This document shows positions 1 to 37,772 of a stretch of 64,000 nt of DNA, piece after piece. This stretch comes from Candidatus Poribacteria bacterium (lineage in GTDB: Bacteria; Poribacteria; WGA-4E; PCPOR2b). The DNA lies in the NCBI GenBank assembly GCA_965207975.1, contig OZ242315.1, forward strand, positions 5,975,197 through 6,039,196. The letters run 5' to 3'. The stretch's first letter is position 1. Every line of letters starts with the position of its first letter. Below the pieces are notes generated by a model, which saw only the letters and a list, made by a program, of their open reading frames with translations, did no database searches and was not told where the DNA came from. The position numbers and the translations under genes were made by a program.

Positions 1-309
1 ATGGTTTTCAGCATCCCATGTTTTGTTATTTCGAGTTTGTTCTTAGAGAGGGGTGCGAACTTTCACTTTTCGATTTCCGGTGTGAGCGCGATTTTCTATC
101 AGGGCATCGTCATTGCTGGGTTCTGCTTTGTCTCTTGGACATCAATCCTTGAGAAGTATAGTCCGAGCAGGTTAGTTGTTCTGTTCTTTTTAACGCCGTT
201 GTTCGGGGTGTTTTTAAGCTATCTGCTCTTGGGCGACGAGATTGGTTTCGGGTTGATTGTAGGTGCCTGCTTGGTCGCTTATGGCATTTATCTTGTCAAC
301 AAAAATTGA
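1..309 (+). CDS. C-terminal fragment of a DMT/EamA-family membrane transporter; the 5' end lies outside the window
   Basis: Hydrophobic TM segments and a C-terminal ...LFFLTPLFGVFLSYLLLGDEIGFGLIVGACLVAYGIYLVNKN, typical of an EamA repeat; the ORF runs off the window start. Confidence 0.5.
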   Translation: MVFSIPCFVISSLFLERGANFHFSISGVSAIFYQGIVIAGFCFVSWTSILEKYSPSRLVVLFFLTPLFGVFLSYLLLGDEIGFGLIVGACLVAYGIYLVNKN

Positions 310-3460: not shown

Positions 3461-5116
3461 CTAATTTTCCTCGGTGACGATGAGCAGCTGATTCGCTTCA
3501 ACATTTGTGAGTGTTTGTTCTCCGCCGCGGGACCAGATAATTTTCACTGTTTCTGCTTTCGTTTCTGTCCCTAGCCCAAAGAGGAGTCGCAGGTCGTGTC
3601 CTGAAAGATAGCTTGATCCGGCTTGGACCTCTTTGATCTGGGAATGGGAGCGGGTCACAACTTCGACACGCGCCCCTATGCCATCACGGTTACTTTTGGT
3701 CCCAACGGTTTTTATCATCAGCCAGTTGTGTTTGTTTCCGCTTTCGTTGCGAAGCAGCACCCCTTCCTGATTCAGGTTCACGACAAAAATGTCGGTGTCG
3801 CCGTCATTATCGTAATCGCCAAAGGCGGCACCGCGTCCCACCCTTTTGGTCGAGAAATACTCGCTGGACTGCTCGGAGACATCCCCAAAAGTTTCCTCCC
3901 CTGTGTTGATGAACAGCTGGTCGGTTTGTGCGTATTCGAGCGCGTCGGATTCTGTTGGATAGAGGTGGCCGTTGGCGACAAAGAGATCTAATGCGCCGTC
4001 GTTGTTTGCATCGAAAAACTTTGTTCCGAAAGCTAATTTCAGGAAACTGACCTCTCCCAAACCTGCAATGTTTGTGAAGTCGATTAGAGCACCGTCTGCG
4101 GTGTTATGATACAGTGTATTTGTTTCGTTAGAGAAATTAGTGACAAAAATGTCCAAAGTACCATCGTTATTGTAGTCCCCGAAATCGACTCCCATCCCGC
4201 CTTCCGCAACGCCGTGCTCGTTATACGCTGCGCCTGCAAAGGGACCGATGTCCACAAAACGACCATCGCCAACATTGCGGTAGAGAAAATTGGAGGTTGT
4301 GTCGTTGGCGACATAGATATCGATACGTCCATCGTTGTCGTAATCCCCACAGGTGACACCGAGGCCTTTGCCGTCGTTGTTATAAACGCCTGCCTGTCTC
4401 GTTACATCGGTAAATGTCCCGTCGCCATTGTTTCTGTAAAGGGTATCTGATACACCTTCGTAGACCTGTGGATTGGAATAGATCCGCCGCCCACGGGGAT
4501 CATACCAATCCTGATCTTTCGTTATGTCATAATCGAGGTAGTTGACGACGTAGAGGTCTAGGTTGCCATCATGATCGTAGTCCACGAAGGCGCAGCTGGA
4601 ACTCCATTTTTCTCCATTTCCCACACCCGCATGAGCGGTCGCATCGGTGAATGTGCCATCCCCGTTGTTCCGATACAGAAGATTTTCGCCGAAATTGGTC
4701 ACGTACAGGTCTGCGTCGCCGTCGTTGTCGTAATCTGCGGCAACGCAGCCCATACCGTAGCCGGTGTCTCCCACGCCTGCTGTGGCAGTGACATCGGTGA
4801 ACGTGCCATCTCCTGTATTTTGATAGAGGTGGTTCGTGGGTGGCGCAGCTGTTTCAAAGCCGGGCAGCGGTGCACCGTTGACGATGTAAAGGTCTAAATC
4901 CCCGTCGTTGTTATAGTCCAAGAAAGCTGCACCGGACCCCATAGTTTCCAGATAGAACTTGCGATCGCTAGCACCATTGATATGCTTGAAGGTGATTCCT
5001 GCCTGTTTGGTGGCATCAACGAATTGGACCGCCATTTGTGCGTGACAAGGGACAATCAGAAGGTGAAGTATCAGGAAAAACCAGTTTCTTAGCTTTCGTT
5101 CCATTCGTCTATCCAT
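3461..5116 (-). CDS. Secreted FG-GAP (VCBS) repeat protein with a C-terminal ASPIC/UnbV domain
   Basis: Signal peptide; at least 7 repeats of YRNNGDGTFTDVT / DYDNDGDLDLYV (FG-GAP calcium-binding motifs); C-terminal ...NRDGIGARVEVV...GSSYLSGHDLRLLFGLG (UnbV_ASPIC). Confidence 0.8.
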   Translation of the reverse strand: MDRRMERKLRNWFFLILHLLIVPCHAQMAVQFVDATKQAGITFKHINGASDRKFYLETMGSGAAFLDYNNDGDLDLYIVNGAPLPGFETAAPPTNHLYQNTGDGTFTDVTATAGVGDTGYGMGCVAADYDNDGDADLYVTNFGENLLYRNNGDGTFTDATAHAGVGNGEKWSSSCAFVDYDHDGNLDLYVVNYLDYDITKDQDWYDPRGRRIYSNPQVYEGVSDTLYRNNGDGTFTDVTRQAGVYNNDGKGLGVTCGDYDNDGRIDIYVANDTTSNFLYRNVGDGRFVDIGPFAGAAYNEHGVAEGGMGVDFGDYNNDGTLDIFVTNFSNETNTLYHNTADGALIDFTNIAGLGEVSFLKLAFGTKFFDANNDGALDLFVANGHLYPTESDALEYAQTDQLFINTGEETFGDVSEQSSEYFSTKRVGRGAAFGDYDNDGDTDIFVVNLNQEGVLLRNESGNKHNWLMIKTVGTKSNRDGIGARVEVVTRSHSQIKEVQAGSSYLSGHDLRLLFGLGTETKAETVKIIWSRGGEQTLTNVEANQLLIVTEEN

Positions 5117-5120
5117 TATT

Positions 5121-8100
5121 TTATTTCGCTCGAAGTTGCCGGGCGATTCTGAATTCTTGGGCGGCTTTTTTGGGTTCGCCTAGCCGTTTATACGTTTCGC
5201 CAAGATTTTCGTGGAACTCTGGGTTGCGTGGATCGAGCCGAATAGCAGTGGTAAATGACTCTGTCGCGTCGGAATACCTTCTCTGTAGAAAGTAGCTCAT
5301 CCCAAGACTATTATGTACCTGTGGTTCATCGGGGGCGAGGCGGACGGCGGTTTCGCAAACACGCTGCATTTTATCTAGCTGGTTGAGTCTCATATAGCAA
5401 ACCGCGAGTATATTGTAGGCTTCCCAGTTGCTGGGACTAAGTTTGATGGATTGCTCTAAGGGTGTAATGGCTTTCTCAAATCTACCGTATTGTGCATGAA
5501 GGTGTCCAAGCTGATACCACCGTTCGGGGTTGTCTGGATTCTGTTGAAGGGCAATTTCAAGTTGTGAAACAAGATTCATATAAGGCTTGAGACTTTGGTA
5601 CTTTCTAATCAGTTCGGCACCTTTCTGGACGTTCCCTTGTCGGATATATGTGTTCCCTAGACTGTAGTACGCTCGAATCTGATCTGGATCCAGTTCGATT
5701 GCTCGTTCAAAACAGCTAATCGCATAATCAAAATTGCCCTGTTTCAGATAGACCATGCCGAGGTCATAGTAGGGGTGGTAGGGATAATCTGGGGCGACTT
5801 TAGGATTCAGTTCGATAGCTTGGCGCAAGGCTTGAATCGCCTCTGGATACCGGTTTCGTCTGAAGTAAGCGACACCAAGCATCTGGTATGCGGTGGGATT
5901 GGCGGGGGCTAACTTGATTGTGGTTTGAAGAGATTCGATTGCCTCTGCAGTTTTGGCGAGATAAAACAGGTAGATGCGTCCGAGAAGACGGTGCGCTTGC
6001 TCGCGGTTGGGGTCGATTTGAATGGCTTTTTTGAGCGATTCCACAGCGATTAGATAATTCTCATTTTTACTTAGATCTAACCCACGATTGTAATGTTCCA
6101 CAAAGGCAGAGGGCTCGCTGTCTTCCGAAGTACGCTGCACTGTTTGGGTCGAATGCACCTCGTGATGCGTCTGAGACACTTCAGATCCCTTGTCCTTTAT
6201 CTGAGTATCTGACCCCAATTTCAGTTTTTCGAGTTCGATGGTTGTGTATTGTGTTTCACCTTCGGTGATCTGAATGAAGTGATCGAGGGGCACGTCATGG
6301 AACTTTTGTGTGAGTCCGGTGGTGTGCCAGAAAATCTCAAGCGTCTTGACTTTTTCCGCCTGACCTAAGCCGATTGTTTGTCGGAGGGGGTTGGCACCGA
6401 AGCTGCCCCCACTGTTGACATACTTATAAATCGAACGTCGCTCCCCGTTTTCGAGGATCTCGGCGTGGATGCGGGCCCCGATTGCCGACCGGTTGGAATC
6501 CACACCGACAAGTTTGATCGTGAGAAAATGGTTTCCAAAGCCGGGGTTTTCATATAGGACGTTGTTGGACCCATCGCCCGGAAAGGCACCGCCCATCTGC
6601 TCGAAAATATCCTGATCTCCATCGTTGTCGAGGTCCCCGAAGACGACGGCGTGTCCTTTCTGCAGATGCCCAAATCCTCCAGCGTAGGTTATGTCCACGA
6701 AATCTATGCCCCGTCGATTGCGATACATGACGCTCGGCATTAGGTTTTTATAGTCCGGGTATCCGGTGCCGAGATAAAAATCGAGGTAACCATCATTGTC
6801 GAGGTCGCCGAAGTTTGAACCCATGGGCGCGTTGGGTCGTACTAGATTGTGTTGGGGTGCGACTTGGTTGAAGCCACCCTGCCCATCCCCGCGATACAGA
6901 TGTGGTAATCCGCCCTCATTGAGATCGGGACGGTTATGATATGTTGTCCTTGATTCTGCCCCTGCTGCAGAAGGTGGGGCACCTATGGAGATGCCGAGGG
7001 CGTTTGCTGCGAGGTGTGAGATGCCAGCGGAATAGGCGGACACATACAGGTCCAATGCCCCATCGTTGTTGAAGTCCCAGAACCAAGCGGGAAAGCTGCG
7101 TATCGGCAGATCAATATTGAGTTGTTTTGCCACATCGGTGAAAGTGCCGTCCCCGTTATTGCGAAAGAGGCGGTTGACACCTTTGAAATTGGACACATAT
7201 AGGTCGAGGAACCGATCCCCATTGTAATCGCCCCAGACCACTGACTTGGTAAAACCGTGGTTTTGCACACCGGCTTCCGCAGCTACATCGGAGAAGGTGC
7301 CATCCCCGTTGTTGCGGAATAGCTGACAAGGAGCGTTGAACGTTTCGGTAGACTCGTTTCCGATGTATAGATCGAGATCGCCGTCGTTATCGTAGTCGCC
7401 CCAAGATGCTGTTTGAGTGGGATAGTGCACCTCACCTAAGCCGGCATCGAAGGTTACATCTGTGAAGGTGCCATCGCCGTTATTACGCAACAGGGAGTTT
7501 GGATGTTGCCCCGCTGCTTCCAACCAGGCACCTCGCAATACAAGGATATCAACATCATCATCGTTGTCGTAGTCCGCTTGGAGCAGGTTCAATCCGCCGT
7601 ACAAACCTAGGAGCCCTGCCTGTTCAGTTCGCTCTGAAAGGGTGCCATCCCGGTTGTTCTGGAAAAGGTGGATTTGTCCGGCGGGATCCCACGTCGAAAC
7701 GACGAGATCTAGGTAGTTATCGTTGTCGAAGTCATCCATGATTGCGCCACCGGATAGATCAAATGTATCAAGCCCCAGATGTGGTGCAATGTTAGTGAAA
7801 CGCGGCATTTCTTCTGTGGATTGGAATGCCTCTGGGGGCAGGAGGTATCGCTTGGGAACCTGTTCTGGATAGCCGCCGATCGTCATGTAAGCGATGTTGA
7901 GTAGCCATCTCGCCTCCAGATGGAGCGGCAATTCAACCGTTGTGTTTCGCAGCACTTCTGTGAGGTAGGTTATTGCCTGTAGTGAACCCTCTTGTTGGGT
8001 GTGAATCCCGCCCTCTCGTAACGGCAGAATGCAGCTGTCAGGGTTGCTCACAATTCCGATTTCGCTGGGGCAGCAATTCTGTGTTTCACCCTTTCGCATA

Positions 8101-10017: not shown

Positions 10018-10389
10018 GATGTTACCTCTTTTCTGTTAGAAATTATCGTGTCTTATTAAAAAAAAACGTGTTCTTCACCGTGGGGGCGGCGAAGGATTAT
10101 TTTAACCCTCTTTAAGAACGGCAAGATTGCGAATCTTGATACAAAAACTGTGAAGGTTGCCCATTGTTACTATGAGAAGGATTCGGTTGCGGGGTGATGG
10201 ACATCTCACTTTCGATATTGACAATTTGGTTCATTGGTTCATTAGTTCACTAGTTGATTGAACTAATAAGTTCTATACATTACGGGCGGCAATACCGCCC
10301 CTACAGGAAAAGCGTTGGATTTTCTTGGTAGCGTGGTAACTTGAGCCGTTTTGGGCGTAATTGGCATTACATTTGCATGGAGGAATACA

Positions 10390-17531: not shown

Positions 17532-17610
17532 GGGTTTATCTCCTGTGCGATTAGGAATGCGTGTGAGGTTTCTGTGGATTGATTGCTTGGTACTCTTATC
17601 CAGACGAAGA
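15915..17610. repeat. Copy 1 of a roughly 1.7-1.8 kb direct repeat (LRR gene body plus its upstream region); copy 2 is at about 19425-21257
   Basis: Near-identical blocks, e.g. 16021-16110 against 19531-19620, and the 5' ends/upstream regions 17520-17610 against 21160-21250; both are in the same orientation. Confidence 0.7.
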
Positions 17611-17747
17611 TCTCGGTTTCACTCGAGAGAGAATTTTATGCCGATCAGCATACTACAAAATCAGCATACTACAAAATAAGGGGGTAAGTCAACGTTTTTT
17701 TGGGATTCGATGTTCTTGGAGAGGTAATTTCCGCTCAGGTTTTTTGG

Positions 17748-17776
17748 TTTACAGCGACCTTCTGTCATGCTATAAT
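17748..17776 (+). promoter_or_regulatory. Strong sigma-70-type promoter TTTACA-N17-TATAAT with extended -10 (TGcTATAAT), upstream of ribE; a duplicated copy lies at 22388-22416
   Basis: Hexamers and 17-bp spacing read directly; about a 50-bp block including this promoter is repeated at 22372-22425. Confidence 0.6.
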
Positions 17777-17861
17777 AACTCACCTAACCCACGGTCAACA
17801 TCCCTGATAAAAATCGGGGGAACAAACCTTAATGGGGAGATTGAAACTAAAACAGATAGCC

Positions 17862-18506
17862 ATGTTCACAGGAATTGTTGCGGAGTTGGGAAACGTGAGG
17901 GCCGTTCAGCGCGGTTCACAAGCGGGAGTGCTGACTATTGCAGCCGCAGAGGTGTTATCGGATGGGGTTGTCGGGGATAGCATTGCGATAGATGGGGTCT
18001 GTCTGACAATCACCAATCTGGGGCACGACAGTTTCACAGCAGATGTTTCTGCCGAGACGTTGCGGCGCACAACTTTAGGCTACCTCAAACCGGGCGATCC
18101 GGTCAATCTTGAGAACCCATTGCGCTTGGTAGATCGGTTGGGCGGGCATCTCGTTTTAGGGCATGTTGACGAGGTGGGGACCATCAGCGGTTGGCAGGAT
18201 GAAGGTACATCATCTTTAATGCGCGTCTCGATTTCTGAGGAGACAATGCGGTATGTGGTGTATAAGGGATCGATCTGTGTTGACGGTGTCAGTCTGACAA
18301 TCTCAAACCTGTTTGACGACGGTTTTGAGGTCGCACTTATTCCCCACACCAAAGAGGTCACGACGTTAGGGCATAAACGGGTCGGCGCGCATGTGAATAT
18401 TGAGGTGGATATATTAGGGCGTTATATTGAACGGTTGTTGACCTATCCGTCTAGCGAAGGATCATCAATTGATATGGACTTCTTAGCAAAGCACGGATAT
18501 ATTTGA
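17862..18506 (+). CDS. ribE: Riboflavin synthase alpha subunit
   Basis: MFTGIV... start; two lumazine-binding repeats (DSIAIDGVCLTI / GSICVDGVSLTI). The ORF-track start at 17832 is an upstream extension. Confidence 0.9.
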   Translation: MFTGIVAELGNVRAVQRGSQAGVLTIAAAEVLSDGVVGDSIAIDGVCLTITNLGHDSFTADVSAETLRRTTLGYLKPGDPVNLENPLRLVDRLGGHLVLGHVDEVGTISGWQDEGTSSLMRVSISEETMRYVVYKGSICVDGVSLTISNLFDDGFEVALIPHTKEVTTLGHKRVGAHVNIEVDILGRYIERLLTYPSSEGSSIDMDFLAKHGYI

Positions 18507-18521
18507 AATCAAAATTTCGAC

Positions 18522-18690
18522 TATGATGAATTCTAAAAATAAATAGACACTTTCGCCCCTCGGTTTCGATCCCGATTCTCGGGATTCCGATGTATCGGAA
18601 CAGGAATACGGGAGGAAGAGAACGGTAGGTGCGGTTAGGAAACCGCACCGGCTTGGAGTGTCCCATTAATTCTAAGATTCACTATAATTG
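18522..18690. repeat. Intergenic repeat element, copy A (tatgRtgaattctaaaaataaatagac...ggtaggtgcggtt-loop-aaccgcacc...gagtgtcccattaattctaagatNNactataaNtg); copies B at 22213-22374 and C at 23014-23119
   Basis: Three copies share about 30-bp 5' and 3' ends and an internal 9-13 bp perfect hairpin (ggtaggtgcggtt/aaccgcacc); internal length varies (169, 162 and 106 bp). Confidence 0.65.
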
Positions 18691-18981
18691 CGAAAATTAT
18701 ATCTTATTTTATACACCGTATGCCTCTGTCTTTGACATACGCTCATGCAAATCCTCTTGTAGCTATCCTGATACATCGGGCTGATCTTCCACAGATTAGC
18801 CAACTTGTGCCTCGGCGGAATTTACCCCTTGGTTCTGACTGTTCAACTGCGTAAACCCTTTAATAACGCAAGTTGCTAGATTCTGTTGACCACCTGTTCA
18901 ACTTGCCCCGCCCGTTCGTGCCAAAAACTTAGTTTCTGTTGCACGATTTCTTTACATGAGCCTACTTTTTAACCCACTTTC

Positions 18982-21177
18982 CTACTTGAGAATCGTCATC
19001 TTCCGTGTGGCAGAATAATCGCCCGCTGTAAGGGTGTAAAAGTAAGTGCCACTTGCCACAGGTTCGCCGAATTCATTTTTGCCATCCCAATAGGCGGCAC
19101 GGCTACGGGTCTGATATATACCTGCGGGCTGATGTCCGAAGGCTAACTGCCGAACTGCTTGTCCGCTTGTGTCGTAAATAGTCAAGGTGACATCTGCATC
19201 CTTTGCGAGATTATACGGTATCCACGTCTCTGGATTGAACGGATTCGGATAGTTGAGCAACAAAACAGTTTCTTTCGGTATCAGTGTTGCAAGAAGTTGC
19301 TCTAGAAACAAAATGCCTCTTAGAGACGTTGCATCTGTGAGGTCTAGTTGTTGTGCTTGGAAAAGCCACCACTTTACATCTGCTGCGATCAACATTTCAA
19401 GTGCTTGTGCCGACGGTGCGGCCTCCGCAGCTCCAAACGCATCCGCAACCCATACCAAATCCGAAATATTAACTACCCCATCTCCATTAACATCCGTTGC
19501 TATATCCGGGACCTTGCTCCCGAATGTGGACGCAACCAAAACCAAATCTAGAAGATTCACGACACCGTCGTCGTTGACATCCGTTGCAATCGGTGGTGGT
19601 TCTGTATCGGAGATAACGTTAAAGATTACTGGATCATCTATAACCCATCCCGCAGCGGTTGCAGAAACGGTGTGTATTCCCAAATTCTCTCCTAGTGTGA
19701 GCGTGCTCTGCGCCCTGCCGTTTTCGTCAGTAGTTGTGTGTGTGGCACTGAGTCTGCCGTCACCGGCAGTCACGGCAAACGTGACCGGAACCCCCCCAAA
19801 CGCAGAACCGTACTCATCTCGCACTTCAACGACAAATGGTTTCAGCGTTACAGAGGGGGAGCCGCGCTGGTAGCCTGAGATTTTCAAGATTGCCGAAGGG
19901 GTACGGTGGCGAAAAATTACCTTAACTCGTCTTTCTTTTAAAATTGGGATGTGTGTGTTAATCGATGGGTAGCTCAAGGGATTGCCTCGCAGCTCAACTT
20001 CATCTGCATACCCCAACCCTGTATTTGCTACCAACGCTGAGACATCCAATATAGAGTTATTCGCAAGGTATAACCATGTCAGATGAGTCAATCCTGTCAC
20101 AGCCGAAATATCAGATATGGAGTTATTCGCAAGGTATAACCATGTCAGATGAGTCAATCCCGCCACTGGTGAAATATCGGATATAGAGTTGCCTTCAAGA
20201 TCGAGATCTGTCAGATGAATCAATCCCACCACAGGCGAAATATCAGATATAGAATTGCCTCCCAGATATAGCAATGTCAGCTTGGTTAATCCGGCTGTCG
20301 CCGATATATCGGATACCGAGTTCTCCCCAAGATCTAGCTCTTTGAGGTCGGCTAATCCCATCACTGCTGATATATCCAACACTGCGTTGTCCCGAAGAGA
20401 CAACATGGTCAGGTTAGTCAATCCTGCTAGGGGCGAAATATCGGATATAGAGTTACCATCCAAATACAGCTGTGTCAAGCTGGTTAACTCTGCCGCAGCC
20501 GAAATATCTGCTATCAAGTTACTCCCCAAAAACAGCGATGTCAGATTAGTTAATCCCGCTAGGGGCGAAATATCGGATACCGAGTTCTTTGAAAGACGTA
20601 GTGCTATCAGGTTAGTCAACCCTGCTATGGGTAAAATATCGGGTATAGAGTTGTATCTTAAATCCAACTCTATCAGTTTGGTTAATCCCGCCACGGGCGA
20701 AATATCAGATATAGAGTTGCCTCCGAAGAATAACTTAGTCAGATTAGTTAATCCCACCACGGGCGAAATATCGGATATAGAGTTATCCCAAAGGTCTAGC
20801 CGTGTTAGATTAATCAACCCTGCTACAGGCGAAATATCGGATATAGCATTGCGTCCAAGAGATAGCTTTGTCAGGTTAGTTAATCCCGCCACGGGCGAAA
20901 TATCGGATATAGAGTTATCCCAAAGATACAGTCGTGTCAAATTAGTCGCGAACTCGAGTCCGGTCAAATCGCTTATGCTAGCGTCCTGTCCTTCAAGGCG
21001 GGTCAAAGTCCCCATCTCTGCTACAGTGATTGGGTCCCCCGATGCTTTACGGAGAGCGGATTCGATAACAGCGCGGAGGTTCGGGTCGGGAAGGTTTACC
21101 GTTTGCGCCCTTGTCGGCAACGGAATCGAGACGCAAATTAGCAGGAAAAAAGTGAGACGAAAAAATTGTGTTTTCAT
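18982..21177 (-). CDS. Secreted internalin-like LRR protein with dockerin-type repeats and a T9SS-type C-terminal sorting domain (Por_Secre_tail)
   Basis: Signal peptide MKTQFFRLTFFLLICVSIPLPTRAQ; about 17 LRR units; VNDDGVVNLLDLVLVASTFG...DVNGDGVVNISDLVWVADAFG; C-terminal LLLNYPNPFNPETWIPYNL...GTYFYTLTAGDYSATRKMTILK. Confidence 0.8.
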   Translation of the reverse strand: MKTQFFRLTFFLLICVSIPLPTRAQTVNLPDPNLRAVIESALRKASGDPITVAEMGTLTRLEGQDASISDLTGLEFATNLTRLYLWDNSISDISPVAGLTNLTKLSLGRNAISDISPVAGLINLTRLDLWDNSISDISPVVGLTNLTKLFFGGNSISDISPVAGLTKLIELDLRYNSIPDILPIAGLTNLIALRLSKNSVSDISPLAGLTNLTSLFLGSNLIADISAAAELTSLTQLYLDGNSISDISPLAGLTNLTMLSLRDNAVLDISAVMGLADLKELDLGENSVSDISATAGLTKLTLLYLGGNSISDISPVVGLIHLTDLDLEGNSISDISPVAGLTHLTWLYLANNSISDISAVTGLTHLTWLYLANNSILDVSALVANTGLGYADEVELRGNPLSYPSINTHIPILKERRVKVIFRHRTPSAILKISGYQRGSPSVTLKPFVVEVRDEYGSAFGGVPVTFAVTAGDGRLSATHTTTDENGRAQSTLTLGENLGIHTVSATAAGWVIDDPVIFNVISDTEPPPIATDVNDDGVVNLLDLVLVASTFGSKVPDIATDVNGDGVVNISDLVWVADAFGAAEAAPSAQALEMLIAADVKWWLFQAQQLDLTDATSLRGILFLEQLLATLIPKETVLLLNYPNPFNPETWIPYNLAKDADVTLTIYDTSGQAVRQLAFGHQPAGIYQTRSRAAYWDGKNEFGEPVASGTYFYTLTAGDYSATRKMTILK

Positions 21178-21257
21178 GGATTTATCCCCTAGCAGTTGGA
21201 AATGTGGGTAGGTATCTGTGCCTTGGTGGTTTGTTACCCTTATCCGAACGGGGCATC

Positions 21258-22167
21258 TATAGTAGACGCAAGAAATAACGGGACAATAGTTTAGAAGTAT
21301 GTTATCCTGTTTGCATTATGGCACATTCATCAGATTTACGCACACGCGTCCTTCAATTCATAGAAAATGGTGGCAGTAAAACAGAAGCGGCAAAACGGTT
21401 CAAAGTCGGTCGAACTGCGATTTACCGATGGCTCAATGACCCAGACCCACTCACACCGGGCAAACCGGGTCCCCGAAAACCGAGACTACTTGACCCAACG
21501 GCACTGGCTGAACATGTCAAGGCACACCCTGACCAAACCCTTAAAGAACGCGCCACACACTTTGGGGTTTCACCCGCCTGTGTCGGCTATGGACTCAAAA
21601 GACTCGGCTACACGCGTAAAAAAAAACGGTTGGATATAAGGAGCAATGTCCAGAAAAACGACAAGCCTATCAGGAGCAACTCGCAACGGCGAAAGCATCA
21701 GGCAAAACGCTGATTTACCTCGACGAGACCGGTTTTACAGATGAAACGTTTAGAAGTCATGGCTATGCCCCCCGGGGACAATGTGTCCAGGGGTTGATAC
21801 CCAGCCAAAAGACCCGCACCACCACTTTGATAGTGGCACAACTGAATAATAAGTTGATTGCCCCAAAGTTAATATCGGGCAGTTGTAATGCACAACGGTT
21901 TAATACATGGCTTGATGAAGCGTTATCGCCACATTTAGATGCCAACAGTCTCGTGATAATGGATAATGCACGCATTCACAAGACCACCGAGACCCAAGCA
22001 TTGATACAAGCCTGTGGTGCTAAGGTGTTATACTTGCCCCCGTATTCGCCGGATTATAATCCCGTTGAACAAAAGTTTGCCAATATAAAGAGAGTCCGGT
22101 CATACAATGCGGATAAGCCCATTGAGGAGATTATCAATATGTATCGTTAATTGTTAAATCTACTATA
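21258..22167 (+). mobile_element. IS630-family insertion sequence (about 910 bp) with imperfect terminal inverted repeats tatagtaga... / ...tctactata and flanking TA
   Basis: Left end ctaTAGTAGACGCAAGAAATAACG (21257-21280) against the reverse complement of the right end (22153-22177), about 18/25 matches; it interrupts the otherwise duplicated LRR upstream region. Confidence 0.55.
21318..22150 (+). CDS. IS630/Tc1-mariner-family DDE transposase, two frames joined by a -1 shift within the A9 run at 21618-21626 (programmed frameshift or pseudogene)
   Basis: N-terminal HTH part (frame 0, to 21713) plus C-terminal catalytic part in the -1 frame (open from 21620): YLDETGF ... IMDNARIHK ... LPPYSPDYNPVEQ (DDE triad context). 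Confidence 0.75.
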
Positions 22168-22212
22168 ATTTCCCCGCCATAGCCTCGCGTCCGGTCAAAG
22201 CTACGGGAGAAT

Positions 22213-22374
22213 TATGGTGAATTCTAAAAAATAAATAGACGCTTTCGCCCCTCGGTTTCGGTCTCCCCGATAAATCAGGGTAAACTAATTATCGGGGCCG
22301 GTAGGTGCGGTTTCCCACCGCACCGATTTGGAGTGTTTTATTCATTCTAAGATCCACTATAAATGACTCTAACG
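22213..22374. repeat. Intergenic repeat element, copy B
   Basis: See copy A; it sits immediately right of the IS630 end. Confidence 0.6.
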
Positions 22375-22387
22375 CTCAGGTTTTTGG

Positions 22388-22416
22388 TTTACAGAGACCT
22401 TGAGTCATGCTATAAT
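22388..22416 (+). promoter_or_regulatory. Duplicate of the ribE promoter (TTTACA-N17-TATAAT); no ORF follows for about 700 bp
   Basis: cgctcaggtttttggtttacagAgaccttGAGtcatgctataataac against 17733-17779. Confidence 0.5.
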
Positions 22417-23013
22417 AACCACAGTTGCTGCTTCCGATACTGGAGGCTGAACCGGGGCTTATTTGCCTAGCAAACCCTCGTTATTTTTTCTATGGGAACG
22501 TGACTGAAAAGCTCGGTTTCTCTTGTGAATACGCAACTTAGGTTGTTATCATCGCAGACAAATGCAGTACTTTAACCCTCTGCGATTGTTAGCAACTTGT
22601 GTGCCATGCCTTTGTTAACAATGAGGAACGCAGTCAGAATGATCGGGAGATCCCTCGAACCGTCGAATTTCATCGTCAGATCCGAATAGGTATCGTTACA
22701 CACAACATACCCGTGAAGTTAAGGGTCTTGTTGTGGATTGGCACCCCATCCGGCTCATTGACACCTCTGGAACAATCTAGCCGTGACTACCCAGAAATCG
22801 GGCGCATCTCACTTGTACATGATTTGAAAATTGCCCGATACCGTGCGAACCAGTTGGTGCTTTTAACCTTAAGTGTGCGAAGTACAGATTAGATGACTGG
22901 TAGAGAGGTATGACTCGCGCCCGATGTCTGATTAGGGTCTATCAGTCTATATTCCCCAAGATCTGTAAATCCCATAGTGAATGAGTCGATTTGCTATCTT
23001 AATCGAAAAGATT

Positions 23014-23119
23014 TATGGTGAACGCTAAAAATAAATAGACACTTTCACCCTCCGGTAGGTGCGGTTTCCTAACCGCACCTACCGGAGCGTCCCATTAATT
23101 CTAAGATCTACTATAAATG
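23014..23119. repeat. Intergenic repeat element, copy C (short form), abutting the ribBA start
   Basis: See copy A; it contains the full 13-bp hairpin ggtaggtgcggtttcctaaccgcacctacc. Confidence 0.6.
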
Positions 23120-23131
23120 AAGGCCTCACCT

Positions 23132-24391
23132 ATGAAGTTTAACACAATCCCAGAAGCCATTGAAGCGATACGAAATGGAGAGATGATTATCGTCTCCGAT
23201 GATCCGGATCGGGAGAATGAAGGCGATTTAATCATGGCAGCGGAGAAAGCCACGCCGGAGGCGATTAATTTTATGGCAAAGTATGGGCGTGGTATGATTT
23301 GTCTTCCTGCAACCTCGGAACGTCTTTCAGAGTTGAATCTCCCGTTGATGGTCTCGGAAAACACGGCCCAACTGCATACGGCGTTTACAGTAACAATTGA
23401 TGCCAGCGATGTGACCACCGGGATTTCCGCCTACGAGCGGGCGCATACGATTCAGAAGTTTGTCCAGCCAGAGACGAAAGCGGAGGATTTCGTTCGTCCG
23501 GGACATATCTTTCCGTTACAGGCTGAGGAGGGTGGCGTATTGCGGCGTGCCGGTCATACGGAGGCGACAGTTGATTTGGCGCGTTTGGCGGGACTGTATC
23601 CGGCGGGGGTTCTCTGCGAAATCTTGAACGAAGATGGCACTATGGCACGCTTGCCGCAGCTTCTCGAATTTGCTGAAAAATATGAGCTAAAGTTCATTAC
23701 CATTGCGGACCTGATCGCTTACCGACGGCAGACAGAGACGCTTATCAAGCGGGTCGCCGAGGCGGATCTTCAAACGAGGCATGGATACTTCAGACTGCAC
23801 TCCTATCAGAGTGCGGACGATGAGAAAACTCACATTGCACTGATTAAAGGAGATATTTCGGATGGTGGGCCGGTACTGGTACGGATGCACTCACAATGCT
23901 TTACTGGAGATGTGTTCGGTTCGCTGCGCTGCGACTGTGGCGAACAGTTGGAGAAAGCGATGCAACTCATCCAGAAAGAGGGGCGGGGTGTCTTAGTCTA
24001 TATGCGTCAGGAGGGGCGCGGTATGGGGCTTGGAAACAAGATTCGTGCCTACCGATTGCAGGATAGCGAGGGGCTTGATACCGTTGAGGCGAATGAGCGG
24101 CTCGGTTTTCCTCCAGATTTGCGGGATTACGGCGTGGGTGCCCAGATTTTGACAGATCTCGGTGTGCAGAAGATGCGTCTGTTGACTAACAACCCTCGCA
24201 AGGTGAGCGGTTTGGAGGGACATAACTTGGAGATTGTCGAGCGGATTCCGCTGCAAACTAGACCCCACGAATTTAACCGGCACTATTTGGAAACGAAGAA
24301 AACGAAACTTGGGCATTTGTTGTTAGATACTATCAACGAGGAGAAGGAGGAGACGGTGCACGGCTACGATGGGCTGATGGTTCAAGGCTAA
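23132..24391 (+). CDS. ribBA: Bifunctional 3,4-dihydroxy-2-butanone-4-phosphate synthase / GTP cyclohydrolase II
   Basis: RibB part [25 protein letters not shown]...; RibA part [24 protein letters not shown] (zinc Cys triad). An alternative in-frame start exists at 23117. Confidence 0.9.
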
Positions 24392-24902: not shown

Positions 24903-25760
24903 ATGGCAGCCTTAGAAGAAATCAAAATTGGTAATGGGCGGATTATCAAAGGGGACTGTCTCTCAGTTATGGATAATTTTCCCGACAACCATTTTATGCT
25001 TGGGTTCACCTCGCCTCCCTACCTGAACGCGATCAATTACGAGGAGCATATTGAAAAACTGCACGGGGCCAAAGCACGATGGGAGCGGGAAGATATATCC
25101 TACGAGGAATATCGGCGTTTTCTGGAGAATCGGTTCAAGGCGTTGCTGCGAATTACAAAGCCGGGGGGACATAATGTCGTAAATATTGCACCGGTCCTAT
25201 GGAACGGTACGCGCACTGCCCTCCCTTTTCATTTTGTCAGCTGGCTTGAACAAATTGGGTGGCAATTCAAGGAGGATATTATCTGGGAAAAGCCGGTTGC
25301 GAGGGATAGGCGATCAGGGGTTTTGTTACAGCATCCCTATCCCGGATATTACTACCCTAGCTTGGTTGCCGAATATATTTTTGTCTTTCAGAAACCTGCC
25401 GATAAGAAAAGTCAGAACAACATTTACTGGAATAGAAGTGAGGAAGAGAAAACAAGGAATGCAATTGACCTCAAGGACTATCAAGGCGAGAAGAGCAAAA
25501 ACGTTTGGAAAATCCGTCCATTAGCCCCCCAAGAAAATTTGCATCCCTGTCCATTTCCGTTGGAACTCGCGGAACGGGTCGTCCAGTTTTACTCTTATAA
25601 GGGAGATTCGGTGATTGACATCTTTGCCGGAAGTGGACAGACAAATTGTGCCGCGGAGAAACTAGGTAGAGCGCATGTCGGCATTGAAACGCAACAGAAA
25701 TACATAGATTATGCGGTTGAACAGCTTCGTCCAATTGTTGATCAAGGACAGTTGTTTTAA
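24903..25760 (+). CDS. Beta-class DNA amino-methyltransferase (N6-adenine or N4-cytosine; N6_N4_Mtase fold), M1 of an M-R-M triplet
   Basis: Motif IV SPPY (FTSPPYLNAINYE) precedes motif I FxGxG (IDIFAGSGQT), the beta-class order; 22 bp after ribH. Confidence 0.85.
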   Translation: MAALEEIKIGNGRIIKGDCLSVMDNFPDNHFMLGFTSPPYLNAINYEEHIEKLHGAKARWEREDISYEEYRRFLENRFKALLRITKPGGHNVVNIAPVLWNGTRTALPFHFVSWLEQIGWQFKEDIIWEKPVARDRRSGVLLQHPYPGYYYPSLVAEYIFVFQKPADKKSQNNIYWNRSEEEKTRNAIDLKDYQGEKSKNVWKIRPLAPQENLHPCPFPLELAERVVQFYSYKGDSVIDIFAGSGQTNCAAEKLGRAHVGIETQQKYIDYAVEQLRPIVDQGQLF

Positions 25761-25787: not shown

Positions 25788-26849
25788 ATGGATATTTTCG
25801 CTAGGATCACTGGAGTAAAATATACCCCACTTCTGTGCAGCAAACTTAAATCTTTCAGCTATAAGGATTTTGACGCAACACTTTCAGACAAAGCAACTTT
25901 CATTCTACAGATTGATCCAACCAAGCAGATTGCTTTAAGCTGCTGGGTTTCACCAAAAAGGACACGGTCTTACCCGTATTCAAGGGTCTATGATACATTG
26001 GGCTTTTCTGGCAAGAAAGCAACAATAATTCCAATTTTGAAGGATGAGGGTAAACAGGGCGATCGAGACTTTCTCCAATGGGATACAATCTCTTTAATGA
26101 GTTTGTTGGGCGTTTACGTGATAATTGGCTACTATGCTGATGCTTCAAAAAGCACAAGATACACGCATAAAATCACGGGACAAAAGTTTAATTCAGAGCA
26201 CATCATGAGCGAAATTGATCGGTTGATGTCTTATCAATCCGATGCTCTGCATTGGAACATAACGCAAGTCGAAGGTATCGGCGAAATTGGTTCGCAAGCG
26301 TTGAACGCCTATTCGGTTATCTCTGAAAAACTAGACGTGGAAATGCACTCTTGGGAGTCTGCGGAACGTCGAATCAATATACTTCGTGAAGGTCAGGCAG
26401 AGTTTAAAACACTATCAAGGAACTTGGCAAGGCAGGCACAGGCAAGAGAGAGTATCACGACACAGCCCAAAGAGCACATAGAGGGAATCAAAGGGAAGCT
26501 AACCATCAAAAATTATCTTGGTGGCAATTATTATTTGACCTGTGATGAGGTTGAAATCCATGGGGAGGAAATCTATCTCGTTGAAGCGAAGCATACGAAC
26601 AAAGATGAGCTGCCTTCCCTCGGTGATATAAAAGATGGTTTGGTGAAAATGATACTATTTACAAACTTGGAAAACCTAAAAGTTGATGAGAGAGATTACA
26701 ATCCTGTGCCAGTTTTGAAGTTGACGACGGGTGAGGGATTCAGTCTTAACTCGCTTAACCGCCCGCAGCAAAACCGTCTTACGAATCTAAAGCAGGAAGC
26801 CGAAACCAATGGATTTCGGATTATGATCAATGATGGATTTTTCACGTAA
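25788..26849 (+). CDS. Candidate restriction endonuclease (putative PD-(D/E)xK) sandwiched between the two methyltransferases
   Basis: Position between M1 and M2 with 28-bp and 12-bp gaps; a possible D...ExK in ...TCDEVEIHGEEIYLVEAKH...; no family was recognised. Confidence 0.4.
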   Translation: MDIFARITGVKYTPLLCSKLKSFSYKDFDATLSDKATFILQIDPTKQIALSCWVSPKRTRSYPYSRVYDTLGFSGKKATIIPILKDEGKQGDRDFLQWDTISLMSLLGVYVIIGYYADASKSTRYTHKITGQKFNSEHIMSEIDRLMSYQSDALHWNITQVEGIGEIGSQALNAYSVISEKLDVEMHSWESAERRINILREGQAEFKTLSRNLARQAQARESITTQPKEHIEGIKGKLTIKNYLGGNYYLTCDEVEIHGEEIYLVEAKHTNKDELPSLGDIKDGLVKMILFTNLENLKVDERDYNPVPVLKLTTGEGFSLNSLNRPQQNRLTNLKQEAETNGFRIMINDGFFT

Positions 26850-27754: not shown

Positions 27755-28299
27755 GTAGATGAACATCTCGAATCTATTTCCACAAATTAAAACTTTCACC
27801 CTACAACATCATTTCAACGGTCCCTTTTTAATTTTTCAAACAAATCTTTTGTAGAACTTACGCACATGGTCAGAAAATAGGGTATAATAGGGACGATGAA
27901 CCCACTCCAATGCGCCAAACATGACTATCAAGACTTACGCATTTCAAAGTTTTGACCTGTCAGGGACCTGCCAAATCCCTGACATTTGGCGGGGTTATGG
28001 TGTCATTTCAGTGAAGAACGGTTCATAAACAGTGCGTATTTGGCAGGTCAAAAAGCCGTTTACACGCCCCTTCTCTTACGTGGTAAAAATCTACAAACGC
28101 TCTGAAGCTAGGCCCCATCGGGGTTCAGAGGAGCATCCACCAATGATGAACCCCCGATGCTTGGTTGAAATTTTTTTTGGACCTGCCAGGGCCCTGCCAA
28201 ATTGCCGAATCGTGTCGGTGGGGCATTGAAGCGGAGGTGTAGGTTCCGCGTAGCGGAAGGGGTTGGATTTTACCGTTCAACTGCGTAAATCCTACTTTT

Positions 28300-37118: not shown

Positions 37119-37772
37119 AATGGGCATATCCTGTAGGATTGTATTCAGTATGCCATAAAATCATGTCCAAGTCTATATTTTCTTGTGAACCAAAGTCTTT
37201 AGATTACACCGTTAGCTTACCCATTTTTGACAAAGTAGGGATAGTAGAGACTGCAACTAGCGCACCATATCGCTCCAGTCGGCAGAGTTATTTTTTTGGA
37301 CGGAGGCTTTTTTCGTTGCATCATACCAGAAAACGTCAGCTTTTTGATTTTTCTGGCAAAATAACGCAAGTTGTTAGCCTCTGTTGACATTTATGTGAGG
37401 TGTGTCCTTAATTCGCCGAAAAACACCTAATAGTAGGGGCGAGGTTTCCTCGCCCAACGGGTTGGTGTTCAACCTATAAGTGGGTATTGAGTTACACACA
37501 TGTCGCCCCGCTGGGGCTTGGGCGTTGGTCAATTTGTTGTGCTTCTATACACATATCGCCTCTCTGGAGCTTTGAGGGTCAAACCATGAGCCCACCACTA
37601 CCAACTATCAGCGTGAAATAAGCAGTTTGACTAACTGGCATACGAAGGTTATACTACTGAGACGTGCTGTCAAATGTCAACACGCCCAGCAACGTGTGCT
37701 AAATTTAATGTAAAACAGATTGGAGAATGTCAAAAGTGTTACGGTGTATCTGCACAGCCCAGAGGAGGAGTT

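Follow-up and report, generated by a model that had tools for sequence, protein, structure and literature searches.

The 64,000-nucleotide stretch of Candidatus Poribacteria contig OZ242315.1 that was analysed as a whole (the window) carries three forward-strand copies, A, B and C, of a short repeat that have in common a conserved 5′ block, a conserved 3′ block and a GC-rich hairpin, GGTGCGGTT/AACCGCACC. By chance, no match to either end block is expected, and neither block appeared in 100 shuffles of the window. A preliminary description of the locus had reported three copies with conserved ends and a hairpin at these places, which is confirmed. No further copy was found in the 64 kb. Domain calls with Pfam identified the neighbours as two leucine-rich repeat (LRR)/dockerin surface proteins, ribE, an insertion sequence (IS) of the IS630 family with its transposase in two frames, ribBA and ribH; a gene-index look-up for the ribE product returned no record. 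Copy A begins 16 nt past the ribE stop codon and sits between the convergent ribE and LRR genes. Copy B occupies a divergent region, between the start of an LRR gene and a promoter-like site at 22388-22416, and copy C ends 1 nt 5′ of the ATG at 23117 and 16 nt 5′ of that at 23132, both of ribBA. The coordinates of the copies, of their central hairpins, which belong to the repetitive extragenic palindromic (REP) class, and of related features are collected in Table 1.

Table 1. Features of the repeat family in the window and in related Poribacteria loci (L numbers; their coordinates are those of the respective locus).
Feature	Position	Strand	Details
Copy A	18522-18686	+	TA 18522-18523, element 18524-18684, TA 18685-18686
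REP core of copy A	18625-18649	+	GTAG head, stem GTGCGGTT / AACCGCAC, loop AGGA
Copy B	22213-22361	+	TA 22213-22214, element 22215-22359, TA 22360-22361
REP core of copy B	22301-22324	+	GTAGGTGCGGTTTCCCACCGCACC
Copy C	23014-23115	+	TA 23014-23015, element 23016-23113, TA 23114-23115
REP core of copy C	23055-23079	+	GTAGGTGCGGTTTCCTAACCGCACC; 25 nt
IS630-family element	21260-22165	+	906 bp; TA duplication 21258-21259 and 22166-22167; whole 21258-22167
REP-associated transposase gene, L194			78% identity to that of L102; flanking REP GTAGGTGCGGTTTCCTAACCGCACC, the exact 25-nt core of copy C
REP-associated transposase gene, L192			72% identity to that of L102; flanking REP GTAGGCGAGGAT..., within diverged copies of the repeat
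REP-associated transposase gene, L193			54% identity to that of L102; flanking REP GTAGGCGGGGCA..., different family
Second repeat family	L065 ~1820-1940, ~2100-2220; L066 ~1515-1640; L098 ~7095-7215; L070 ~4735-4855; L089 ~115-235		

The preliminary description had located the copies correctly and drawn their ends too wide, by 4 nt in copies A and C and by 13 nt in copy B, so that they ran into the flanking ATTG/AATG. Its shared hairpin was likewise confirmed, except that GGTA, which it had counted as part of the stem, is an unpaired head in all copies save copy C. Copy C is the minimal form, with a single REP in a body of 98 nt, and the 161-nt body of copy A holds one REP and an additional CCCGAT-type hairpin segment. 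In RNA folding, the palindrome of copy C widened to a perfect 17-pair stem (23050-23087), with a predicted hairpin energy of -41 kcal/mol (z = -7.4). The arms of this palindrome read CCGGTAGGTGCGGTT / AACCGCACCTACCGG, and the 3′ side in both the related locus L015 and the family consensus reads ...CACCGGTTTGG; the perfected palindrome looks like the outcome of a template-switch correction of a quasi-palindrome.

To determine the extent of the family, we scanned genomes, one for each species, for the invariant 20-mer AAAAATAAATAGACNCTTTC; the locus and copy numbers are lower bounds. The loci listed numbered more than 111. About 21 Candidatus Poribacteria assemblies contributed 107 of these, and a single chromosome had as many as 19. 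Of the four other matches listed, three were inspected, and all three lacked the rest of the element. The possibility, raised in the preliminary description, that the copies are confined to this locus is thus set aside, the Poribacteria loci with the element being more than 107 in number and spread over about 21 assemblies. From 119 anchors we delimited at least 103 complete copies, 53 on the forward and 50 on the reverse strand, which are non-coding and 100-449 nt long (median, 132).

These 103 copies gave a consensus 5′ end of TA-TRGTGAATTCTAAAAATAAATAGACACT and a 3′ end whose reverse complement is TA-TAGTGGATCTTAGAATTAATGAGACACT, the hyphen marking the border between flank and element. The preliminary description had denied an inverted-repeat relation between the two ends; the consensus ends are in fact complementary at 22 of 30 positions, with TA-TRGTG terminal at both, and 92% of the cells were paired at the chosen positions, compared with 30-44% when the partners were slid. 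TA stood at both flanks in 80 of the 103 copies (positional conservation, 84-97%), and the base outside it was T (70) or C (23) on the left and A (70) or G (25) on the right, indicating that the target is a palindromic Y-TA-R, mostly TTAA or CTAG. A filled site, GAAC-TA-(element)-TA-ATTT in L054, had an empty counterpart, GAAC-CA-ATTC, in L083, a diverged orthologue with one substitution (CA); the pair is consistent with a single dinucleotide having given way to TA, element and TA. The TATAAT-like box that had been noted at the 3′ end consists of the terminus CTA, the duplicated TA and flanking sequence, and the same TATA stands at the other end. Inverted repeats, TA flanks, small size, lack of coding capacity, dispersal on both strands and ends related to those of the co-resident IS630 element all uphold the earlier suggestion that the repeat resembles a miniature transposable element with inverted repeats (MITE).

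The relation to IS630 emerged from the window itself, where a repeat finder paired the 3′ end of the element with the left end of the IS, whose ends are TAGTAGACGCAAGAAATAACGGGACA / TAGTAGATTTAACAATTAACGATACA. Both sets of termini begin TA-TAGT, and the MITE ends agreed with those of the IS at 17-20 of 28 positions, compared with 19 of 28 for the two ends of the IS itself; with the common TAGT left out, the likeness gave p = 0.0001-0.04 against composition-matched shuffles. Two IS630 relatives from metagenomes, L113 (46% protein identity; end TA-TAGTAAAGTCAAAAAATAAGTTGACA) and L112 (55%; end TA-TAGTGACATTTAGAATTATTGATACA), have ends like the 5′ and 3′ ends of the MITE, with agreement at 17 of 24 positions in each case (p<=0.0004). 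The transposase of the window IS is read in two frames, 21318-21713 (HTH_Tnp_IS630) and 21794-22150 (DDE_3), and a -1 shift in an A9 run (21618-21626) restores a 277-aa transposase. IS630-family elements use A-runs of this kind for slippage. From the likeness of its ends, the window IS is a candidate autonomous relative of the MITE. A tblastn search for an autonomous partner with its transposase in 938 kb of Poribacteria loci returned only a partial copy in L004, and none of the relatives from a metagenome scan exceeded 55% identity.

In a whole-window comparison with the collected loci, L015 (OZ220744.1) was the only orthologous locus found; it is colinear with the window at 91-98% identity and lacks the IS. 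Its empty site, GGGGCATC-TA-ATTTCCCC, corresponds to the filled site GGGGCATC-TA-(TAGTAGAC...ATCTACTA)-TA-ATTTCCCC in the window, indicating that the IS has the limits 21260-22165, that TA was duplicated and that the insertion took place after the two genomes had split. The IS sits in a small palindromic site, CGGGGCATC-TA / TA-ATTTCCCCG. All three copies of the MITE have orthologues in L015: copy A is 94% identical and has lost its 3′ end in a deletion of about 290 nt, copy B is 91% identical and lacks 12 nt of its 5′ inverted repeat through a deletion, and copy C is 94% identical and occupies the same position upstream of ribBA. Because the copies are present in L015 and the IS is absent, the copies predate the IS, which inserted later and independently. 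The proposal that they had moved together with the IS630 insertion is therefore not supported, and the adjacency of copy B to the IS, correctly observed, is due to the later insertion of the IS 46 nt upstream.

The sequence in the window that corresponds to the L015 deletion, 18687-18968, makes up the approximately 290 nt between copy A and the LRR stop codon. Identity to L015 was 96-100% across the tract 18960-23060 (97.6% in the LRR gene within it) and 84-92% in the flanking sequence; ribE and ribBA were 88-89% identical, and the third positions of ribBA differed by 29%. Since the identity of the copies to L015 is common to the whole tract, it is not evidence of selection on the copies; it suggests that the segment between copies A and C was recently exchanged or homogenised. 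The pattern hints at a composite transposon or an exchanged tract with copies A and C as its limits, which we do not claim, as the right boundary is gradual and the left is hidden by the deletion. Comparison of the two loci also revealed that the loop of copy A (18638-18641) is reverse-complemented relative to L015 at about 1477-1480 (AGGA vs TTCT), as is that of copy B (22314-22317) relative to about 3942-3946 (TCC(C) vs AGGA(A)), with the same stem arms and GGTA head in each case. A loop flipped in two of three orthologous pairs since divergence suggests frequent hairpin-mediated loop inversion.

In an alignment of 40 short copies of the MITE, the central hairpin was the sole consensus structure, and 3 of its 9 stem pairs were altered on both sides: 57-74 (UA in 20, CG in 14 and UG in 5), 59-72 (CG in 35 and AU in 4) and 58-73. 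None of 500 shuffles reached the observed score, which kinship among copies can also raise above that of shuffles and which is thus supportive, short of proof. The unpaired head GGTAGG was nearly invariant. No compensatory change was found in the 14 subterminal inverted-repeat positions. With these pairs uncompensated and the ends unpaired in minimum-energy folds, we rejected the idea that the two ends pair as a selected long RNA or DNA stem. In the 938 kb of Poribacteria loci, no tetranucleotide stood 5′ of GC-rich stems, on either strand, more often than GTAG (118 of 1423 on one side and 137 on the other), and the stems headed by GTAG include several that are unrelated. In two REP surveys, the REP signature comprises a GT(A/G)G head, a palindrome, a non-complementary middle, alternating clusters and a rayt gene flanked by its own REPs (PMC2817692, PMC3733652). 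The internal hairpin is a GTAG-headed REP.

The 103 copies hold 0 (20 copies), 1 (62), 2 (18) or 3 (3) detectable REP modules, and copy length grows with their number. Both orientations and arrays occur, with 20 of 107 modules reversed. In the single-REP copies, the head points toward the 5′ end of the MITE in 56 of 62, and owing to this fixed orientation the REP looks like an inherited passenger to which modules were added later. A pair of inverted REPs acting as the mobile unit, as in a REPIN, is not what is found here: all three window copies and 62 of the 103 family members have a single REP. The window also contains solitary GTAG-headed, GC-rich hairpins outside MITE shells, such as GTAGGGGCGAGGTTTCCTCGCCC, at 37433-37456 (forward), 10283-10304 (reverse) and 28239-28259 (forward), which are likely members of other REP families in the genome. 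A second Poribacteria repeat family with other inverted ends (...AATTCGGTAATTTCCGA / TCGGAAATTACCGAATT...) has the same GTAGGTGCGGTT REP (Table 1), and in two chimeras, L008 5727-5900 and L074 ~2190-2340, the 5′ half of the MITE is fused to the 3′ half of this second family at the common hairpin.

Genes for REP-associated tyrosine transposases (RAYTs) accompany these REPs in related genomes. With a probe sequence, we found an open reading frame (ORF) in L102 (1179-1652) that scored 120.6 bits on the NCBIfam model REP_Tyr_transpos (cutoff 80) and matched Pfam Y1_Tnp and PDB 4er8. Arrays of the two most frequent MITE cores flank it, and the REP array beside it terminates in a reversed MITE end. 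There were 191 homologues, whose source names, where given, are all Poribacteria. The REPs that flank three relatives of this gene (Table 1) demonstrate that RAYT clade and flanking REP stem covary. In L192 (1-529, 701-1165 and 1300-1650), an IS605 OrfB/TnpB-like gene is followed directly on its 3′ side by the RAYT gene and then by an array with an 87-nt period, each period consisting of a REP and the 3′ part of a diverged MITE copy.

From these observations we consider it probable that the window copies are fixed, old, non-autonomous MITEs of the IS630/Tc1-mariner type with a REP core, specific to Poribacteria. For ISY100 of Synechocystis (947 bp, 24-bp inverted repeats and a transposase of 282 aa), the transposase and about 30 bp of each end suffice for transposition, and TA is duplicated (PMC2170065). 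By analogy, the imperfect inverted repeats of about 30 bp in the MITE would be binding and cleavage sites for an ISY100-like IS630-family transposase acting in trans, which might be supplied by the 906-bp element at 21260-22165 or by a closer relative elsewhere in the genome. Insertion would occur at a TA within a Y-TA-R context, with duplication of the TA. The interior would not derive from the IS and would consist of one or more GTAG-headed REPs carried as passengers, and the longer size classes would arise from extra REP modules in either orientation. We infer that an IS630-family transposase moves the MITE and that a RAYT acts on its REP core.

Several findings weigh against this account. 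All of the window copies are common to L015, so recent activity is not demonstrated, and no two of the 103 copies are identical, with only one pair reaching 97%. The search for an IS with near-identical ends failed, with about 70% as the closest likeness of ends, and the transposase of the window IS is intact only with a frameshift. Joined-flank and separate-flank searches for empty sites in the collected loci yielded only two usable filled/empty cases, so that direct evidence of TA duplication by the MITE itself is thin: L054 with L083 is consistent and the second case ambiguous. In this second case, L072, the forward-strand copy at 2822-2982 is flanked by AG/GT rather than by TA/TA, and its two paralogous empty sites, CAG-TA-CT and CAG-TA-TT, differ by indels and do not fit a simple TA duplication. 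In addition, no RAYT gene was found in the 64-kb window, and the association of RAYT with REP rests on related genomes. A more elaborate form of the account is possible, and we put it forward only tentatively, as rather doubtful: the repeat may be a two-system chimera in which an IS630-type shell (moved by a DDE transposase) disperses the REP while a RAYT (an HUH/Y1 enzyme that works on single-stranded hairpins) adds, flips and exchanges modules, giving rise to chimeras with families that share the REP.

The preliminary description favoured a portable promoter, terminator or small RNA module, and a primarily selected regulatory cassette of this kind (an outward promoter, a hairpin that terminates transcription or stabilises mRNA, or a gene for a small RNA), spread by virtue of its function, has several features in its favour. 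The copies lie near gene ends; in contexts assigned with a crude ORF caller, a gene start lay within 60 nt (<=60 nt) of the 3′ end in 26 copies and of the 5′ end in 13, and 37 copies were co-directional with their gene compared with 21 antisense. The hairpin of copy C is highly stable (see above), that copy is kept at the same spot 5′ of ribBA in L015, and two papers report that REPs and MITEs change the stability of adjacent transcripts (PMC3733652, PMC3184786). However, a scan for sigma-70 -35/-10 consensus sites and for GC stems followed by a T-run detected neither a promoter pair nor a stem with a T-run at the hairpin or ends of the three copies. Rfam gave no match in the copies even at E<=5, so that the proposed Rfam check also speaks against a known small RNA. 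Moreover, the repeat occurs in both orientations and in all four gene contexts, its conserved structure is the REP stem only, and the apparent TATA box, being the terminus plus the duplicated TA, has its mirror image at the opposite end. L015 retains copies A and B without parts of their ends, and its identity to the window is tract-wide. The weak orientation bias is compatible with mild selection or with target preference, and we regard a regulatory cassette as an unlikely explanation; an effect of the stable hairpin on transcripts of ribE (copy A lies downstream) or of ribBA (copy C lies in its probable leader) may be a side effect, and would not be why the element exists.

It is similarly improbable that the whole unit is REPIN-like and mobilised by a RAYT, a Y1 (HUH) transposase, with its likeness to IS630 ends being incidental. 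The core is indeed a genuine GTAG REP, RAYTs are widespread in Poribacteria, the array of diverged copies with the 87-nt period in L192 adjoins a RAYT gene, and the REP array next to the L102 RAYT closes with a reversed MITE end. At least one other repeat family, whose ends differ, also contains this REP. Against this, the MITE ends match IS630-family ends significantly, share TA-TAGT with them and lie in Y-TA-R targets, and the REP keeps a fixed orientation within the shell (56:6), which is what a passenger would show. Y1 transposases of the IS200/IS605 type are not known to make TA duplications, which also counts against such a unit. According to PMC3337134, REPINs are defined by two inverted REPs, whereas 62 of the 103 copies carry one; GTAG REP dimers lying in TATAGGA...TCCTATA palindromes in Anabaena, described by Di Nocera et al. 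(PMC3733652), are a point in favour. Least probable by far is a purely local origin, in which an LRR/promoter duplication copied one ancestral element. The two units do share an LRR gene (75%, about 1.4 kb) along with about 70 nt of its upstream sequence, and a promoter block of 48 nt (92%), and copies A, B and C all lie on the same strand. However, more than 100 dispersed copies exist in other genomes, the three copies differ in their internal modules, nothing upstream of the ribE promoter corresponds to copy B, and the segment before copy C is unlike ribE, which precedes copy A. We had considered that the 600 nt before copy C might be the relic of a ribE gene, in which case A and C would have arisen by tandem duplication, and rejected this, there being no similarity to ribE. 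The notion that the copies had moved together with the LRR duplication is thus not borne out: the stretch between B and C is not decayed ribE, and an origin of A and C by tandem duplication is not demonstrated.

The Poribacteria MITE family is new and phylum-specific; its kind is known, and its nested architecture is a variant with one passing precedent. Among the closest parallels in kind is RUP of Streptococcus pneumoniae, a non-coding repeat of about 107 bp with inverted repeats like those of the co-resident IS630-Spn1, a TA target and about 100 intergenic copies (PMC2229807). RUP belongs to the same size class as the 98-nt body of copy C and was proposed to be mobilised by IS630-Spn1. However, its sequence is unrelated, it belongs to another phylum and no internal functional motif has been reported for it, whereas the Poribacteria MITE has a GTAG REP and grows by modules. 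Nezha of cyanobacteria is a MITE of 130-170 bp whose ends match an IS (ISNpu3). ISY100 and the window IS (947 and 906 bp) both have imperfect inverted repeats of about 24-28 bp, a transposase of about 280 aa with helix-turn-helix and DDE domains, and a TA duplication (PMC2170065); unlike that of ISY100, the reading frame of the window IS needs a -1 shift in A9, and the two are likened by architecture, not by sequence. BOX of S. pneumoniae (67-637 bp) and Correia/NEMIS of Neisseria (107 vs 155 bp) are likewise modular, with conserved ends and a variable interior, and often co-transcribed. Their sequences are unrelated to that of the Poribacteria MITE, BOX has no assigned transposase, and the integration host factor sites and promoter elements of Correia were not found in the MITE.

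The precedent for the nested architecture is the GTAG-15 REP dimers of Anabaena variabilis in TATAGGA...TCCTATA (Di Nocera et al. 2013, PMC3733652), which likewise have a central GTAG REP in an AT-rich TATAG...CTATA shell. Shells without REPs were not found there, and the mention is made in passing, unlinked to IS630 or to a mechanism; the REPs there are dimers, whereas those here are mostly single (PMC3733652). The REP/BIME/REPIN and RAYT systems of E. coli, Pseudomonas and Stenotrophomonas share with the Poribacteria core a GT(A/G)G head and a compensated palindrome of about 25 nt, as well as alternating clusters, rayt genes flanked by cognate REPs and covariation of RAYT with REP (PMC2817692). 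In contrast, the Poribacteria REP is nested in a shell of the DDE-transposon type in a fixed orientation, and Poribacteria are not mentioned in the available parts of two REP surveys. Full-text searches of the available literature returned nothing that links Poribacteria with MITEs or RAYTs; one match to "RAYT" and Poribacteria was discarded as the author name Raytselis.

On the basis of these full-text searches, this is the first description of a MITE family, of REP families and of RAYT genes for Poribacteria, a phylum of uncultivated sponge symbionts. One non-autonomous repeat system is here physically nested in another of a different kind, which bears on how REPs spread. Should the two-system chimera prove true and general, it would account for the central REPs in TATAG...CTATA palindromes both in Anabaena and here. 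Under the same chimera, REPs could spread without RAYT-catalysed transposition, which is itself hard to demonstrate. In practice, the repeats will cause breaks in assemblies, look like regulatory motifs during annotation and mark hot spots of recombination and indels in these genomes. The "TATAAT box" and hairpin beside the riboflavin genes are transposon anatomy and provide no evidence for a riboflavin regulatory element.

The strongest promoter-like sites of the region, TTTACA-17-TATAAT with TG at 17748-17776 and 22388-22416, lie outside the copies. They belong to a 48-nt block that is 92% identical between the two places and 100% kept in L015, and they stand 5′ of ribE and of a 594-nt non-coding stretch (22420-23013) leading to ribBA. 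This stretch, conserved at 96%, matched nothing in Pfam or Rfam and does not represent decayed ribE; it may serve as a long leader or encode an RNA of unknown type, and copy C probably lies within a ribBA leader of about 700 nt. With Rfam 15, the window as a whole yielded no match at the gathering threshold, and 17600-23250 yielded a single chance-level match at E<=5, outside the copies; no flavin mononucleotide riboswitch was found near the rib genes in these scans. Further downstream, 24903-25760 encodes a DNA methyltransferase (N6_N4_Mtase), behind which lies an ORF of 353 aa (25788-26849) without a Pfam match, and about 1.1 kb holding this ORF is missing from L015; the segment 24903-26849 may represent a variable restriction-modification pair.

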